From NCBI GenBank assembly GCA_016188765.1, contig JACPHE010000003.1:1-25081 (forward strand): a stretch of 25,081 nucleotides of DNA, written 5' to 3'. The notes below the pieces were generated by a model. That model ran no database searches. It worked only from the letters and a program-made list of their open reading frames with translations, and was not told the origin of the DNA. Below are positions 2,433-7,853 of the stretch, one piece after another. This DNA comes from Parcubacteria group bacterium (GTDB lineage Bacteria; Patescibacteriota; Minisyncoccia; JACQLN01). The position numbers were made by a program, and so were the translations under genes. Numbering within the stretch: position 1 is the first letter of the stretch; each line of letters starts with the position of its first letter.

Positions 2433-4178
2433 AACTACAAATGGATTTTAACTGAACAGGCGCCGCCTGATTTTTTATCTAAATTTCCGGAATATCCGGC
2501 CGTGGTCTCGCAGTTGATTTTTAGCCGCGGTCTGGATACACCCGAAAAAATAAATCAATTTTTTAATCCCCAATATGAGACCGACCTTCACGACCCTTTT
2601 TTGCTTAAGGATATGGATAAGGCCTGTGAGCGCGTCAAACGCGCCGTAGGCCAAAAGGAAAAAATCGTAATTTATGCCGATTACGATGTGGACGGCGTTT
2701 CCGCGGCCACGGTTTTAGGCGAATATTTTAAAAACATAAATTATCCGTTTGAGGTTTACATGCCCGACCGCCAAAAAGAAGGCCATGGCGTTAACCGGGC
2801 CGCTTTAGAATCCATCATTTTGGCCGGCGCCAAACTGATAATAACTTTAGATTGCGGCACCACCAATGTAAAAGAAGTGGCTTGGGCCAAAAGTAAGGAA
2901 GTGGATATGATTGTGGCGGATCATCATCAGACCGTTTCCGGACGGCCCGAGGCGGCGGCTTTTATCAACCAGCATCAGGAAGGAGACAATTATCCGTTTA
3001 AGGGTTTGTGTGGTACGGGGTTAGCTTTTAAATTACACTGTGCCCTCCGAAGCTTTAGCGAAGGAGGGATTGGCTCAAATCAAAATCATGGACAGGAAAA
3101 ATGGCTTTTGGATCTTGTGGCTTTGGCCACGGTGGCTGATATGGCGCCTTTGTTGGATGAAAATAGGGTTTTGGTTAAACACGGCCTTTTTGTTTTGGCC
3201 AAAACCAAACGGCTGGGTTTAAAAAAGTTGATGGAGTCGGCCGGTGTTAAAGCCCGGCACGATTTAGGAACCCTATCTACAAATTTAGACAGTTTTACTT
3301 TGGGTTTTACATTGGGGCCGCGAATCAACGCCGCGAGCCGGATGGCGCACGCCAATCTGGCCTACGAACTTTTAACCAGCAACAACGAAGCCAAAATAGA
3401 CGAACTGGTTGTTTCTTTAAACGATAATAATCGCAAGCGCCAGCAGATTGTAGATAAGGTTTTGAAAGAGGTTAAGGCCAGAGTAGATGCTTATAAAGAA
3501 CTTCCCAGTTTTATTATGGAGGGTTCGGCAGATTGGTCGGTTAACCTTTTGGGTTTGGTGGCCTCCAAGATCACCGAAAAATATCACCGGCCGGTCATGT
3601 TGTACCAAATATCGCCCGAGGGCAAGTGCAAAGGATCCTTAAGAACTATCGCCGGTTTTGATTTGATGAAGGCCTTGGGTTCAGTCAGCGAAGATTTCAT
3701 CCAGTATGGCGGCCACCCAGACGCCGGCGGCTGTAGTTTTAAGGTGGTTAAGGCCGATAAAATAAAATCTGGCCTAAACAGTTATGCCGAAAATATTTTA
3801 ACGGCGGAGTTATTATTAAAAAAATTACAGATTGATATCGCGGTTTCACTTTCAGAAATAAGTTGGGGCTTGATTGATTGGTTGGATAAATTTAAACCCT
3901 GGGGCATGGCCAATTCTCGGCCAAAATTTGTTTCTAAAAATGTTTTGATCCAAAATGTTATTTTAATGGGCCAGCATCGGGAGCATTTAAAAATTATGGT
4001 TTCTGACTCAAGTATGATGAATAGACAATTGCCGTTACTAATGTTTCGGCATAACGGATTTGCTCAAAACCTAAAAATCGGCGACACTTTGGATATTGTC
4101 TACGAGGTTGATGTTAACGAATGGAACGGCAATAGAGAGATTCAGCTAATGCTGGTTGATTTTAAAAAATATGAATAA
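2430..4178 (+). CDS. recJ: Single-stranded-DNA-specific exonuclease RecJ
   Basis: IYADYDVDG, LIITLDCG, IVADHH (DHH motif), LDLVALATVAD, LGPRINAASR, GSLR and YGGH motifs. Start placed at MNYKW because the upstream ATGs lie inside the repeat cassette. Confidence 0.95.
   Translation: MNYKWILTEQAPPDFLSKFPEYPAVVSQLIFSRGLDTPEKINQFFNPQYETDLHDPFLLKDMDKACERVKRAVGQKEKIVIYADYDVDGVSAATVLGEYFKNINYPFEVYMPDRQKEGHGVNRAALESIILAGAKLIITLDCGTTNVKEVAWAKSKEVDMIVADHHQTVSGRPEAAAFINQHQEGDNYPFKGLCGTGLAFKLHCALRSFSEGGIGSNQNHGQEKWLLDLVALATVADMAPLLDENRVLVKHGLFVLAKTKRLGLKKLMESAGVKARHDLGTLSTNLDSFTLGFTLGPRINAASRMAHANLAYELLTSNNEAKIDELVVSLNDNNRKRQQIVDKVLKEVKARVDAYKELPSFIMEGSADWSVNLLGLVASKITEKYHRPVMLYQISPEGKCKGSLRTIAGFDLMKALGSVSEDFIQYGGHPDAGGCSFKVVKADKIKSGLNSYAENILTAELLLKKLQIDIAVSLSEISWGLIDWLDKFKPWGMANSRPKFVSKNVLIQNVILMGQHREHLKIMVSDSSMMNRQLPLLMFRHNGFAQNLKIGDTLDIVYEVDVNEWNGNREIQLMLVDFKKYE
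3043..3068. repeat. Short palindromic element in frame within recJ
   Basis: CCCTCCGAAGCTTTAGCGAAGGAGGG, nearly identical to 24312-24337. Confidence 0.7.
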
Positions 4179-4620
4179 AGAAAAAATTATTGTCTATGCC
4201 GATGGCGGTTCTAGGGGTAACCCCGGCCCGGCGGCGGTGGGGGTGGTGGTCTGCAATGAAAAGGGCCAGAAGATAAAAGAGTGCGGCCAGAAATTAGAAG
4301 AAATTTCCACCAACAACGAAGCCGAATACGAAGCGGTTATTTTCGCGCTAAAAAAATTAAAACAATTATTCGGCAAAGACAAAACTAAAAATTTGACTGT
4401 GGAGTTTAGAGTAGATAGCGAACTTATCGCTTCGCAGCTTTCCGGAGAATATAAAATCAACGAAGAGCGGATGCAGTTATTGTTTATGAAGGTTTGGAAT
4501 TTAAAGTTTGATTTCGGCCGGATGACTTTCAAGTCCATTCCGCGCGAACAAAACAAACGGGCGGATGAATTGGTTAATCTGGCCTTAGATGGCCAAGGCG
4601 AGACGGTAAAAATGATTTGA
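4171..4620 (+). CDS. rnhA: Ribonuclease HI
   Basis: YADGGSRGNPGPAAVG, TNNEAEYEA, DSELI and PREQNKRADELVN motifs. ATG 4171 overlaps the recJ stop. Confidence 0.92.
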   Translation: MNKEKIIVYADGGSRGNPGPAAVGVVVCNEKGQKIKECGQKLEEISTNNEAEYEAVIFALKKLKQLFGKDKTKNLTVEFRVDSELIASQLSGEYKINEERMQLLFMKVWNLKFDFGRMTFKSIPREQNKRADELVNLALDGQGETVKMI

Positions 4621-4644
4621 CTTTTTATTGTGGATAAGTATAAT
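4617..4644 (+). promoter_or_regulatory. Sigma70-type promoter of rnpB
   Basis: TTGACT (4617-4622), 16-nt spacer, TATAAT (4639-4644), directly upstream of the P1 5' strand. Confidence 0.7.
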
Positions 4645-4721
4645 TAAAGCATCAAGAAAGTGAGATGATCGCCCCGAGGACAATCGCAAGATTGTATCGA
4701 GGGGAGGAAAGTCCGAACACC

Positions 4722-4869
4722 TGCCAATTTTGTTCGCGAGTTATGCGAGTGATTACAAAATTGAGCATCCGCCGTAGCTTCATGCGAAGGCGGAAGCCCT
4801 ACTTTGCCCTAACGGGCTTCGCAGGGTGCTCAAAATTGTTGTTTCGCTAACACTCAAACAATTTTGGCA
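4722..4869 (+). repeat. ~148-nt multi-hairpin element, copy A, inside rnpB
   Basis: Aligns end to end with 5277-5423. The 28-mer ATCCGCCGTAGCTTCATGCGAAGGCGGA is identical in both. Confidence 0.85.
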
Positions 4870-5029
4870 AAGAGTGGTTGCGAAATGCAACCGGGAGCAG
4901 ATCCGAATCAAATCGGATCGAAGCCCAGGGAAAGTGCCGCGTCAAACGCGGTGTGCGTTCATGATTCACAGCTGATTTCGTGAGCGCACGCAACAGAGAC
5001 AATACTAGTTGATTATGTCGGAAAAGATT

Positions 5030-5057
5030 ATCCGCCTTCGCTAAAGCTTCGGCGGAT
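5030..5057. repeat. Short palindromic element in the P12 region of rnpB
   Basis: ATCCGCCTTCGCTAAAGCTTCGGCGGAT is the reverse orientation of the CCGCCGwAGCTT..GCGAAGGCGG family. Confidence 0.7.
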
Positions 5058-5276
5058 GCTCGATTCCGCAGCCAAATCTTGAAAAGATTTGGGCGTAATC
5101 GGCAAAAGGTGAAAAGTATCATGTCAAACATGATTCTAATCAGTAGCAATACTGATTGGTTGCAAACCCCACTCGGTGCAAGAGCGTGTCCCGCCATTCC
5201 TTGGTAGTAATATCAAAGAAGTCGGGAAGAATCGCTAGAGGTCGCCAGCGATGGCGACCCCAGATAAATGATTATC

Positions 5277-5423
5277 TCCAATTTTGCCTGCGAGCTTTGC
5301 GAGCAGATGCAAAATTGAGATCCGCCGTAGCTTCATGCGAAGGCGGAGTACCCTACTTCGCCCCTTTGGGGCTTCGCAGGGTTCTCAATTTCATAGTTTC
5401 GCTATCGCTCAAACGAAATTGGA
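5277..5423 (+). repeat. ~147-nt multi-hairpin element, copy B, inside rnpB (P19 position)
   Basis: Lies between CR-IV and CR-V and is a direct repeat of 4722-4869 with compensatory stem changes. Confidence 0.85.
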
Positions 5424-5454
5424 ACAGAATTCGGCTTACGGCTTTCTTGCTAAC

Positions 5455-5496
5455 AAAACACTCCCTCTTCTAGGCAAAGAGGGGTGTTTTGTTTTT
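5455..5496 (+). terminator. Intrinsic terminator after rnpB
   Basis: AAAACACTCCCTCTT / AAGAGGGGTGTTTT stem followed by a T-rich tail. Confidence 0.7.
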
Positions 5497-5570
5497 GGGG
5501 ATTAAAAATAATTGTAAAAGCCATAGGGCTGGAGTATGCTGGAAGATATACTTGAAAGCCAAAATTACCC

Positions 5571-7853
5571 ATGGACTCCGACTTTGTTTTTATAAATCCC
5601 AATAAAATTCCTCCGCGTCGAACGCTTAAAAAAACATCGCCTTTGGGCCAAACGCGTCCGCATGAAATAAGTTCTGACTTACCGGAAAAAACTTTAAAAG
5701 ATCCGCCGGATTTTGATCTGCTGTCCGGTTCAATTTATCTGGTCGGAGAAAGCGCGGTTCCGTTGCCAGAACCTGACCCCTTGACCCGAGCTATGTGGGG
5801 CGAGGTTTTTCTGGACAACCCAGAAATGTCCGACAACACGGCATCATTTACCGATGAACAGCAGCCCAGCCCAACTGATTCCCGCGACGCTCTTTTGGCC
5901 GAACTGGAAAGCATAAATAAAAATGACACGGAACTCCTGCGCCAAATACATAGAATCTCAAAACCATCGCGAACGGCGCCCTTGTCCTTTGCTTCCGTCA
6001 GGACTGATTTTGGAGACCTCAATGAAAATCCAAATCTAAAAATAAATATCTCTAAAAAGACGCCCTCATCGGAAAGTTCTGATTATTATCGCGCCGAAAA
6101 CGACTGGTTTCAGGTGAATCTGGCAGTTCCGGAAAGAATCAGTAAAATTAAAAAATATGCTCGGTCGGAGCCCGAGGAAAATACGACAGAAGATTCTCAA
6201 CCCGAAAATTCCAGCTTCAAATTTAAAACCTTCCTCGCGGCGGTTATGTTATTTTTTTTACCGGCGGCCGCGATGTTTTTTCTTTATTCCGGAGAAAATA
6301 ATTTTTTAAAATCCGCTTTCGCCGGCCTTAATTCCAAACTTTTGAGTTCTTCAAGTTTTACCTTGGTAAATACCGAGGGAAACAGTGTTTTCCCTAAGTT
6401 ATCAGAAATAAAATCCCAAATAAAACGCGCGGGCGTTTCGGATTCAGCAGTGGTTGGACTAGTAAATTTCTTAGAAGAAAACGCCGATTTTGACTGGTTT
6501 AATATCTTTAAAAAAAAACAGCCGGACGGCAGTTTTACGCTAGCGGCGTTGGAGTCCTTGGAGAAAGCGAAAAATATTGTTCTGGCTTCCACGGCTACCG
6601 GTGTTACAGATTTAAACTTGCGCTTAGGAGATCAAATATCTTGGTTTAAATTTTGGAATCAAGTTTTTTCCCCAAAAAAGACATATTTAATTGTATTGAC
6701 GGACGAAGATCAGCTCTGGCCCGGCGGCGGCCGGCCAAAGGACTATGTTGTGGTTAAAACGACTGCCGGCGGATTAGAAATTGTAAATTCGGCTAAAATC
6801 AGCGATCTTGACGCCGCTTTTAATTTAAAAATTACGCCGCCAGAACCGATAAAAATTGCGAGCACCGCTTGGCTGCCTTCGCAGTCATTTTGGTTTTTTG
6901 ATTTTCAGAATTCGGCTAAAACGCTTACTAATTTTTTTGAAAACACCACCAGCGTGCAAATTGACGGGGTTGTTGCTTTCAGCCGTTCTTTTTTAAAGGA
7001 CTTAAGTTTTAAAGAAAATCTTGTTTTTAATATTGACTCACCCGCTTGGTTTTACGGCTTGACGGATGCCGTTTCCAGAAAGCCAGCCGCGAGATGGCTG
7101 ACTTTAGCCGAAGTGATGGAAAGAGCGTTGCTTTCGCGCCAGGTTCAGCTTTATTTTAAAGACGATTCTTTAGAAGGTTTTGTGTTAAATTCCGGTTGGT
7201 CGCCAGATATTAAGTTTTCTTCGCAAGAGGATTTTTTGGGGGTGGGTTGGGCCAGCGTGAAAGGCGGATTTTTGGGCTTGGACTTAATGGAGTATCGCGG
7301 CAATGTTTTTGAGGACGGTTCCATAATGGCCAGAATCAATATTTTATTAAAGCAAAATAATAATGGAATTGATTCGCAAAACTATTTTAAAATATATCTG
7401 CCGCCGGGCAGCCAGCCGCTAAAGGCCAAAGGTTTTTCGCCGCGAGAAAAAATTCCAGAATTTGAATATGCTAGCCAAGGTTTTTCGACTGATGCCCGGC
7501 TGAAATCGCCCATAAAATCAAACATAGAAAATTTGGATGTTTTTGAGGAATCGGGTTTAACCGTGGCTGGGGGCTGGGTAAATTTAAAGTCCGCGGATCG
7601 CGGTTCTATAACACTGGAATATCTTTTACCGTTTAAACTTGACCGAAAAAAAGGTTTGGCGGATTACCGAATCAAAATTGCGCGGCCGCATCAAGACGAA
7701 GATGTGCCATTTAGGTTTATTGTGACCCCGGAAAAGAATATTAAATTCATGTCTTTGGAACCCAATGGCTTTGTGAGTGAAAATTTGGGTGAATATCAGG
7801 GCAATCTCTCCCGCGACCTGACTCTGGACGCCAGTTTGGTGTTTGAGGAATAA
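5571..7853 (+). CDS. Single-pass membrane protein with a divergent DUF4012-like C-terminal region
   Basis: Low-complexity N-terminus, one hydrophobic segment (FLAAVMLFFLPAAAMFFLY), then YLIVLTDEDQLWPGGG, KITPPEPI, WFFDFQNSA and IDGVVAF, which recall DUF4012 blocks. Family assigned from memory, not by HMM. Confidence 0.6.
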   Translation: MDSDFVFINPNKIPPRRTLKKTSPLGQTRPHEISSDLPEKTLKDPPDFDLLSGSIYLVGESAVPLPEPDPLTRAMWGEVFLDNPEMSDNTASFTDEQQPSPTDSRDALLAELESINKNDTELLRQIHRISKPSRTAPLSFASVRTDFGDLNENPNLKINISKKTPSSESSDYYRAENDWFQVNLAVPERISKIKKYARSEPEENTTEDSQPENSSFKFKTFLAAVMLFFLPAAAMFFLYSGENNFLKSAFAGLNSKLLSSSSFTLVNTEGNSVFPKLSEIKSQIKRAGVSDSAVVGLVNFLEENADFDWFNIFKKKQPDGSFTLAALESLEKAKNIVLASTATGVTDLNLRLGDQISWFKFWNQVFSPKKTYLIVLTDEDQLWPGGGRPKDYVVVKTTAGGLEIVNSAKISDLDAAFNLKITPPEPIKIASTAWLPSQSFWFFDFQNSAKTLTNFFENTTSVQIDGVVAFSRSFLKDLSFKENLVFNIDSPAWFYGLTDAVSRKPAARWLTLAEVMERALLSRQVQLYFKDDSLEGFVLNSGWSPDIKFSSQEDFLGVGWASVKGGFLGLDLMEYRGNVFEDGSIMARINILLKQNNNGIDSQNYFKIYLPPGSQPLKAKGFSPREKIPEFEYASQGFSTDARLKSPIKSNIENLDVFEESGLTVAGGWVNLKSADRGSITLEYLLPFKLDRKKGLADYRIKIARPHQDEDVPFRFIVTPEKNIKFMSLEPNGFVSENLGEYQGNLSRDLTLDASLVFEE

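Follow-up and report, generated by a model that had tools for sequence, protein, structure and literature searches.

The single RNase P RNA gene (rnpB) of the Parcubacteria genome GCA_016188765.1 is 798 nt long, twice the usual size, and carries two copies of a ~145-nt cassette made of four hairpins. We consider it likely, though well short of certain, that this cassette is a repeat-derived expansion that is tolerated in the mature ribozyme. The window, that is, the whole 25,081-nt stretch of DNA analyzed here, is contig C10 of this genome (G000; 503 kb, 97.8% complete, 58 assembly breaks). By its LepA sequence, the organism belongs with groundwater Parcubacteria of the candidate phyla radiation (CPR); the nearest record, a "Parcubacteria group bacterium" metagenome-assembled genome, is 73% identical. 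A search for loci related to the ORF at 5571-7853 yielded no relatives. Comparisons covered a family set of 11 genomes (G000 to G010, G000 included), in which G001 is the sister species, and a class-wide sample of 151 genomes.

RESULTS

The window carries an enlarged RNase P RNA gene

A covariance search of G000 with RF00010 gave a single match, corresponding to one rnpB gene in the genome. The match spans positions 4897-5269 of the window with 64.2 bits (E = 5e-19) and covers only part of the model (19-313). This is under the RF00010 gathering score of 100 bits because the cassette inserts split the model, and at gathering thresholds Rfam returned no match in the window. The full-length model matches the orthologs of G001 (145 bits) and G005 (113 bits), both above the gathering score. 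Despite its sub-threshold score, the window gene is, judged by its sequence motifs, a bacterial RNase P RNA of class A. CR-I and CR-V (P4), CR-IV, J11/12, the P1/P2 pairing, P13/P14, and P18 are all found, and the gene is collinear with its 10 family orthologs. The gene for the protein subunit, rnpA, is present elsewhere in G000. The features of the locus are as follows:

4617..4644, + strand: sigma-70-like promoter of rnpB (TTGACT-16-TATAAT, 11/12 matches; the -10 box ends 7 nt 5' of the P1 5' strand)
4652..5449, + strand: rnpB, RNase P RNA class A (798 nt; single RF00010 match; aligned with 10 orthologs)
4704..4721, + strand: CR-I / P4 5' strand (CR-I motif 4704-4718), then P5 5' strand (CACC); kept in 11/11 orthologs
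4722..4869, + strand: cassette copy A, J5/7 (P5.1-position) site after P5 (covariance model R1, 153.8 bits)
4722-4725/4866-4869, + strand: outer stem of copy A
4763-4766/4828-4831, + strand: inner stem of copy A
4726-4762, 4768-4794, 4796-4827, and 4832-4865, + strand: hairpins H1, H2, H3, and H4 of copy A
4875..4926, + strand: two family-specific hairpins between P5 and P7 (GAAA-loop hairpin 4875-4893; second hairpin 4893-4926)
4990-5005, + strand: J11/12 motif (motif position)
5006..5116, + strand: expanded P12 with a partial cassette, the latter in reverse orientation
5117-5135, + strand: P13 (motif position)
5136-5159, + strand: P14 (motif position)
5238-5261, + strand: P18 (motif position)
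5262..5276, + strand: CR-IV / J18-2 and P2 3' strand (motif position, RF00010 match)
5277..5423, + strand: cassette copy B, P19 site between the P2 3' and P4 3' strands (R1, 155.7 bits)
5277-5279/5421-5423, + strand: outer stem of copy B
5280-5316, 5321-5347, 5350-5382, and 5387-5420, + strand: hairpins H1, H2, H3, and H4 of copy B
5424..5449, + strand: CR-V / P4 3' strand and P1 3' strand (CR-V 5424-5438; 83-100% identical across the family)
5452..5493, + strand: intrinsic terminator of rnpB

Copies A and B align end to end with 77% identity overall and share a run of 28 identical nt at the central hairpin. As a direct repeat they form three collinear blocks, 4724-4765/5278-5319 (76%), 4767-4794/5320-5347 (100%), and 4807-4873/5362-5428 (76%). 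The partial cassette in P12, reversed as a whole, consists of the inner-stem word and an H2-type palindrome (5031-5056). Positions 4759-4780 and 5044-5065 are 91% complementary, and R1 matches the minus strand at 4971-5103 with 45.6 bits. P12 measures only ~26 nt in G009, G001, and G005.

Gene length differs widely in the family, with 798 nt in G000 vs. 443 nt in G001 and a range of 443-825 nt among the 10 other genomes. The 443-nt gene of G001 has a short hairpin at each variable site. At the site of copy A this is a native 23-nt hairpin, which the cassette replaces in G000, and the P19 hairpins of G001 and G003 measure 17-21 nt. The two hairpins at 4875-4926 are kept in 11/11 orthologs, the short G001 gene included; they add a P5.1-like feature to an RNA that, with its P13/P14, is otherwise of class A.

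An earlier note on this DNA had described an RNase P RNA with all its conserved regions spread over ~800 nt and two end-to-end alignable insertions, one just after CR-I/P5 and one at P19. The motif positions and the 798-nt gene confirm the first point, the repeat search and pairwise alignment agree on the extent of A and B, and the ortholog alignment together with the motif positions places both sites as described. Of the checks that the note proposed, RF00010 gives 64 bits in G000 and a full-model match in the cassette-free G001, and sister-taxon rnpB genes reveal both the length range among ten relatives and a species devoid of cassettes.

Covariation supports a four-hairpin fold

Both copies are predicted to fold stably, with energies of -60.4 (A) and -59.3 kcal/mol (B) and z-scores of -5.5 and -4.8; 0/200 shuffled sequences folded as well. 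RNAalifold applied to seven family copies predicts the four hairpins H1-H4. In a model of these hairpins plus short outer and inner stems, 97.6% of cells are paired across the seven copies and 15 pairs show double changes, a result reached by 0/500 shuffles (slid controls, 1-3). The same model applied to 14 copies from 12 genomes and nine families has 93.3% of cells paired and double changes in 23/50 pairs, again reached by 0/500 shuffles (slid controls, 4-8). The outer and inner stems hardly vary among copies and are predicted only. Individual stems of the cassette are 8-14 bp long and interrupted.

The four structure-preserving differences between A and B listed in the earlier note are all present in the alignment. 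The inner stem reads GAGCA/UGCUC in A vs. GAG-A/U-CUC in B, the H1 stem UGU/ACA vs. UGC/GCA, and the tip of H3 GCCC-UAAC-GGGC vs. GCCCC-UUU-GGGGC, and the H4 stem has three double changes. Its description of a structured, palindromic element whose fold is kept by compensatory changes is upheld by the covariation in 7 and 14 copies.

We also considered a long-rod fold, suggested by single-sequence minimum free energy, in which the 5' arm pairs with the 3' arm. Its extra helices are 86-89% paired in the seven sequences, and one of its pairs is broken in 5/7; it was rejected as worse than the four hairpins.

Neither the sequence of the H1 stem nor the loop word of H4 varies across the nine families, and several unpaired positions are invariant across families. 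Tandem internal loops of the G.A type, a motif typically bound by proteins, occur in H1 and H2.

Full-length cassettes occupy four sites of rnpB

In the 11 family genomes, every R1 match of 145-170 bits lies in rnpB. There are three hot sites in the family: after the P5 5' strand (the P5.1 position), P12, and P19. The cassette studied here, which we call type I, occupies the P5.1 position in G000, G009, and G010 and P19 in G000, G004, G008, and G009, with a variant form at P19 in G010 and G006. Type II is found in P12 of G010, G007, and G002 and also at P19 and the P5.1 position of G002; type III is found at P19 of G005 and the P5.1 position of G003. In the ortholog alignment, each cassette takes the exact place of a native hairpin and leaves no duplication. 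Searched genome-wide, types II and III had no full copies outside rnpB, only sub-hairpins of 25-40 nt.

Type II (L015 of G002, 1592-1684 and 1817-1920) is rich in CGCGGA/ACGCAGA words, and the one gene of G002 holds two type II copies that are 96% identical. Type III (L014 of G005, 1225-1316; L012 of G003, 1409-1503) begins with an H2-type palindrome. At P19 of G007 (L013, 1171-1206) there is a 26-nt hairpin whose stem is that of cassette H4 and the outer stem; from its sequence, it looks like a deletion remnant of an earlier cassette.

Ten of the 151 genomes in the class-wide sample have R1 matches of at least 60 bits, and 8/10 of the best ten R1 loci from other families are inside rnpB. Full cassettes in these families occur at the following sites:

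P19: G131, G134, G034, G078, and G114
P5.1 site: G077
P3: G109
P12: G113

The gene of G109 (L062) combines type I in P3 with type II in P19. All full-length rnpB copies, 15/15 at four sites (P3, P5.1, P12, and P19), are in sense orientation. Outside rnpB, four-hairpin copies were found in G023 (at least four, dispersed), with others in G077 and G109.

The cassette is an inverted dimer with dispersed relatives

The ~145-nt cassette is built as an inverted dimer from one unit of two hairpins, H1-H2: when H1+H2 is aligned with H3+H4 in reverse complement, the score lies 6-7 standard deviations above shuffles. Weaker R1 matches (27-54 bits) number 17-46 per genome in ten of the 11 family genomes and four in G002. 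There are 32 R1 matches in G000 at E ≤ 1; the 13 that we inspected are H1 or H1-H2 hairpins, mostly intergenic, with several at contig ends. The genome-wide search for more copies that the earlier note had suggested turned up H1-H2 units scattered in G000 and full copies dispersed elsewhere (e.g., in G023).

By strict motif definitions, G000 contains ten H1 motifs and nine H2-type palindromes, vs. 0 of the latter in shuffles. Three of the nine H2-type palindromes are in rnpB and one is upstream of the gene for L27. The other five, each 26 nt, are in frame in ORFs:

3043-3068 of the window
24312-24337 of the window
G000:C49:7665 (rpoC)
G000:C49:9468 (rpoC)
G000:C7:10916 (glycosyltransferase)

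These in-frame palindromes encode peptides such as SAFAKASADK, and an exact 24-26-mer of the H2-type palindrome recurs in other families of the class. The larger H1+H2 unit can also sit in coding sequence, because it was found in frame in two genomes: in a TatD-like hydrolase of G057 (L068, G057:C4, ~1500-1630) and in a 243-aa open frame of G009 (L157, G009:C10:225539-225669).

A pair of an H1-like hairpin and H2 at G000:C13:307-394 (L003) lies directly upstream of the L27 gene, which is on the opposite strand, and the H1-like stem takes in the L27 start codon. This H1-H2 locus on contig C13 had no match to an Rfam family. In G000, the majority of H1 units immediately precede genes on the minus strand, so such units may have a regulatory or terminator role.

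Identical H1-H2 units are found at or near contig ends (the end of G000:C5 and C48:22725-22841; C31:8819 and C36:464). Some of the 58 breaks in the assembly are probably due to these repeats, whose copies are under-counted.

A tolerated expansion or a selected domain

The reading we favor starts from the cassette as a DNA palindrome of ~145 nt, an inverted dimer of the H1-H2 unit that is dispersed in these Parcubacteria genomes. The whole 798-nt gene would be transcribed from one promoter to one terminator, and the cassettes would most likely remain part of the mature RNA, each as an expansion domain of four hairpins that folds independently. A short putative outer stem would join the ends of each cassette, so that the core (P1-P4, CR-I to CR-V) could fold normally. 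Selection against misfolding of an essential ribozyme would keep the stems paired, which would account for the compensatory changes. We infer that the cassettes themselves are neutral. Two observations, the confinement of full copies to rnpB in the family and the constant sense orientation, are not obviously expected of a purely selfish, random inserter. Moreover, copy B is more conserved between genera than variable core segments of the gene (82-85% identity with its orthologs in G004, G008, and G009 vs. ~75%), and this, like the invariant unpaired positions, could reflect function.

The same observations raise a second explanation, in which the cassette serves RNase P of these bacteria as a functional plug-in domain, a protein-binding platform or a structural brace, that is maintained by selection, and in which H1/H2 units elsewhere bind the same factor. 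It is favored by the concentration of full copies in rnpB, both in the 11 family genomes and among the best loci from other families, by their orientation, by the conservation of copy B, and by the invariant H1 stem and H4 loop word together with the G.A-type loops of H1 and H2. However, G001 has neither cassette and yet possesses a complete 443-nt rnpB whose core is 98-100% identical to that of G009, which has both. In other species, these sites are filled by cassettes of unrelated types. H3 and H4 correspond to the H2 and H1 types in reverse complement, a DNA-level signature that has no RNA-level rationale, and relatives of the unit occur in ORFs and intergenic DNA. We regard a selected domain as unlikely. 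A more specific form seems less likely still to us: a dedicated, transferable RNA module of Parcubacteria RNase P that serves, for example, as a docking site for a putative protein subunit or as a brace for a weak core, moves in sense orientation among the four sites, and shares a partner with the H1-H2 units.

The cassettes are probably retained in RNA

The tolerated-expansion reading places the cassettes in the mature RNA. In a freshwater metatranscriptome, contigs from relatives (85-95% identity) correspond to positions 4668-4780 and 5095-5318 and run across the core-A and core-B junctions; these contigs are short, and the library may contain DNA. Other contigs of the same metatranscriptome come from relatives with a short P19. 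Together with the one promoter and one terminator of the gene, the RNA-library contigs of relatives suggest that the cassettes are kept in RNA.

Alternatively, the cassettes might be intervening sequences that are excised after transcription, with RNase III as one candidate enzyme, so that the RNase P RNA would end up at normal size, either in fragments or religated. Intervening sequences in bacterial 23S rRNA are excised in this manner. An RNase III gene is present in G000, and the long, near-perfect stems of the cassette would suit such an enzyme. Nevertheless, the RNA-library contigs of relatives cross both core-cassette junctions, and stems of 8-14 bp with interruptions are short for RNase III. 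In the literature searched, we found no report of bacterial RNase P RNA being processed by cassette excision. We consider excision improbable.

The two copies are old and were probably exchanged by recombination

In a tree of cassettes, copies group by site and not by genome; copy B of G000 falls with the P19 copies of G004, G008, and G009 (support 96/94). Because copies group by site, A and B are best read as old paralogs, both older than the split of the genera. One segment departs from this pattern: the H2 hairpin, and H2 only, has been homogenized in G000, with 97% identity between A and B vs. 72-76% to orthologous A copies. The earlier note had read the gene as the product of two insertions of a MITE-like element; grouping by site across genera speaks against a recent double insertion in G000.

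We compared filled (G009) and empty (G001) sites and found no target-site duplication at either position. The native hairpin is exactly replaced between identical flanks, in genes whose cores are nearly the same. The 5' segment of the G009 gene is 100% identical to that of G006 and 74% identical to that of G001. Because of this mosaic 5' segment, the exact replacement, and the highly conserved flanks, these comparisons point to exchange of cassettes by homologous recombination and not by transposition. Between species, homologous recombination through the conserved core flanks would be the main route by which cassettes come, go, and are swapped, and occasional non-homologous events may copy a cassette to a new site.

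The opposing explanation is an active transposable element, either a MITE or a REPIN moved by a Y1/HUH RAYT-like transposase, that inserted independently at each site. The inverted-dimer architecture resembles that of REPINs and BIMEs, a reversed partial copy sits in P12, and Y1_Tnp genes are present in 10/11 family genomes, the exception being G001, which also lacks rnpB cassettes. G001 is, however, the only genome that fits a link between Y1 genes and cassettes, and thus a single case; across the family, counts of Y1 genes and of element matches do not vary in step. The sole Y1/HUH transposase-like gene of G000 (C56:2702-3385; 227 aa, with the HUH motif) scores 22 bits against the RAYT model NF047646, for which the cut-off is 80. 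In the fashion of a RAYT with its own REP, this gene has the same 21-nt palindrome, CCCAGACGTCCGACRTCTGGG, on both flanks, a sequence with no relation to the rnpB cassette. A link to a RAYT-type transposase is not supported, given the weak model score, the different flanking palindrome, and the Y1 counts. No autonomous transposon sharing the cassette termini was found among R1 matches or near Y1 genes, and no mobilizing enzyme for the cassette was identified in the family genomes. Exact hairpin replacement, the lack of target-site duplications and of full-length copies outside rnpB in the family, and a tree that groups by site with no recent insertions visible leave active transposition, in our judgment, quite improbable.

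Hallmarks that would back the MITE-like label of the earlier note are missing: there is no target-site duplication, the native hairpin is replaced exactly, and the palindrome flanking the Y1 gene is a different one. Its idea of tolerant peripheral sites survives, in that hairpins are swapped outside the core, while the accompanying claim of insertion by a mobile element is at odds with full copies that occur, in the family, only in rnpB.

Independent contigs reproduce both copies

Independent Logan contigs from two groundwater runs cover positions 4500-5058 with 0 differences and 5032-5600 with 1 difference. They span the two copies and show each of them flanked on either side by unique core, and the possibility of mis-assembly that the earlier note had raised was not borne out. 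The contigs break only at the 26-nt palindrome in P12, which is highly repeated in the metagenome; read depth over H2 is ~940 vs. 16. Joints 4790>5047 and 5056>5319 in the DNA runs were attributed to links that the shared H2 palindrome creates in the assembly graph, and not to deletion variants. Although the break at P12 and the depth over H2 might suggest that one copy is collapsed or chimeric, such an artifact is extremely improbable, given that each copy lies with unique core in single contigs from two runs, that G009 and G010 hold both copies in the same order, and that the two parts meeting at P12 complete each other to a single ribozyme.

DISCUSSION

The expanded rnpB of G000 has a practical consequence. 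Cassettes push a real and essential gene to 64 bits against a cut-off of 100, so that rnpB can look missing in CPR genomes, and the presence of rnpB serves as a completeness check for such genomes (Lui et al. 2021, PMC8172020). The cassettes also provide a natural map of insertion tolerance in RNase P: P3, the P5.1 position, P12, and P19 can each take a folded domain of 145 nt, and one RNA can take two at once. Palindromic repeats of very small genomes reshape both proteins, through in-frame peptides in rpoC and other genes, and a catalytic RNA. Pieces of an essential RNA appear to act as exchangeable cassettes between species. If the cassette binds a protein, an unrecognized component of bacterial RNase P would be indicated; if it is a transferable module, an essential bacterial ribozyme would be evolving by the swapping of functional RNA modules.

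Several elements of this picture have precedents: diverged CPR RNase P RNAs, repeats in cyanobacterial rnpB, and palindromes in ORFs and the tmRNA gene of Rickettsia. What appears to be new is a conserved four-hairpin cassette that occupies four rnpB sites, is doubled in one gene, and has dispersed palindromic kin; we found no earlier description of it. A literature search returned no paper linking Rickettsia palindromic elements to RNase P or noncoding RNA, and a search on CPR and palindromes returned organelle papers only.

The closest work on the host RNA is that of Lui et al. (2021, PMC8172020), who, in the passages concerned, describe CPR RNase P RNAs as class A, with helices that are greatly extended or missing and scores under Rfam thresholds. 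The rnpB of G000 is likewise a CPR class A RNA under threshold. Those passages treat the extensions helix by helix and mention no repeated cassette, doubling, multi-site occurrence, or kinship with dispersed palindromes (PMC8172020).

For the invasion of an RNase P ribozyme by repeats, there is precedent in the STRR sequences, genome-wide repeats found inside rnpB of heterocyst-forming cyanobacteria (Vioque 1997, Nucleic Acids Res 25:3471, as cited in PMC2858038). As the title of Vioque (1997) indicates, the STRR is short and tandemly repeated, whereas the element described here is a non-tandem, four-hairpin palindrome of 145 nt at P3, P5.1, P12, or P19.

Rickettsia palindromic elements number 526 copies in R. 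bellii, of which 53 are in ORFs and one is in the tmRNA gene (PMC1458961). Like the cassette, they are palindromic repeats of ~100-150 nt in a reduced genome, and they occur both in frame within coding sequences and within the gene of a structured RNA (PMC1458961); in G000, H2-type palindromes lie in rpoC and other ORFs, and the cassettes in rnpB. The likeness is, however, an analogy only, since the sequence family and the phylum are unrelated and the host RNA is that of RNase P rather than tmRNA. In addition, the RNA studied here holds two full copies and one partial copy, full copies in the family are restricted to rnpB, and four rnpB sites are used across families.

With REP, BIME, and REPIN sequences, the cassette shares dispersed, short, imperfect palindromes that are numerous and mostly intergenic, an inverted dimer as the larger unit, and the presence of Y1/HUH genes in the genomes. 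It differs from them in that no RAYT flanked by the same REP was found and location is not purely extragenic: units also lie inside genes, namely rnpB and in-frame ORFs. In addition, the two arms of the cassette fold separately instead of pairing with each other. As for MITEs, the cassette shows neither a target-site duplication nor a related autonomous transposon.

Finally, ribosomal RNAs are known to carry expansion segments and intervening sequences, and rRNA insertions have been reported for CPR bacteria. As in rRNA expansion, self-folding helices are added on terminal loops of an essential RNA while its core stays intact. In contrast to rRNA expansion, the cassette is a discrete unit, common to non-homologous sites and to loci other than RNA genes, and its presence varies between near-identical sister genes.
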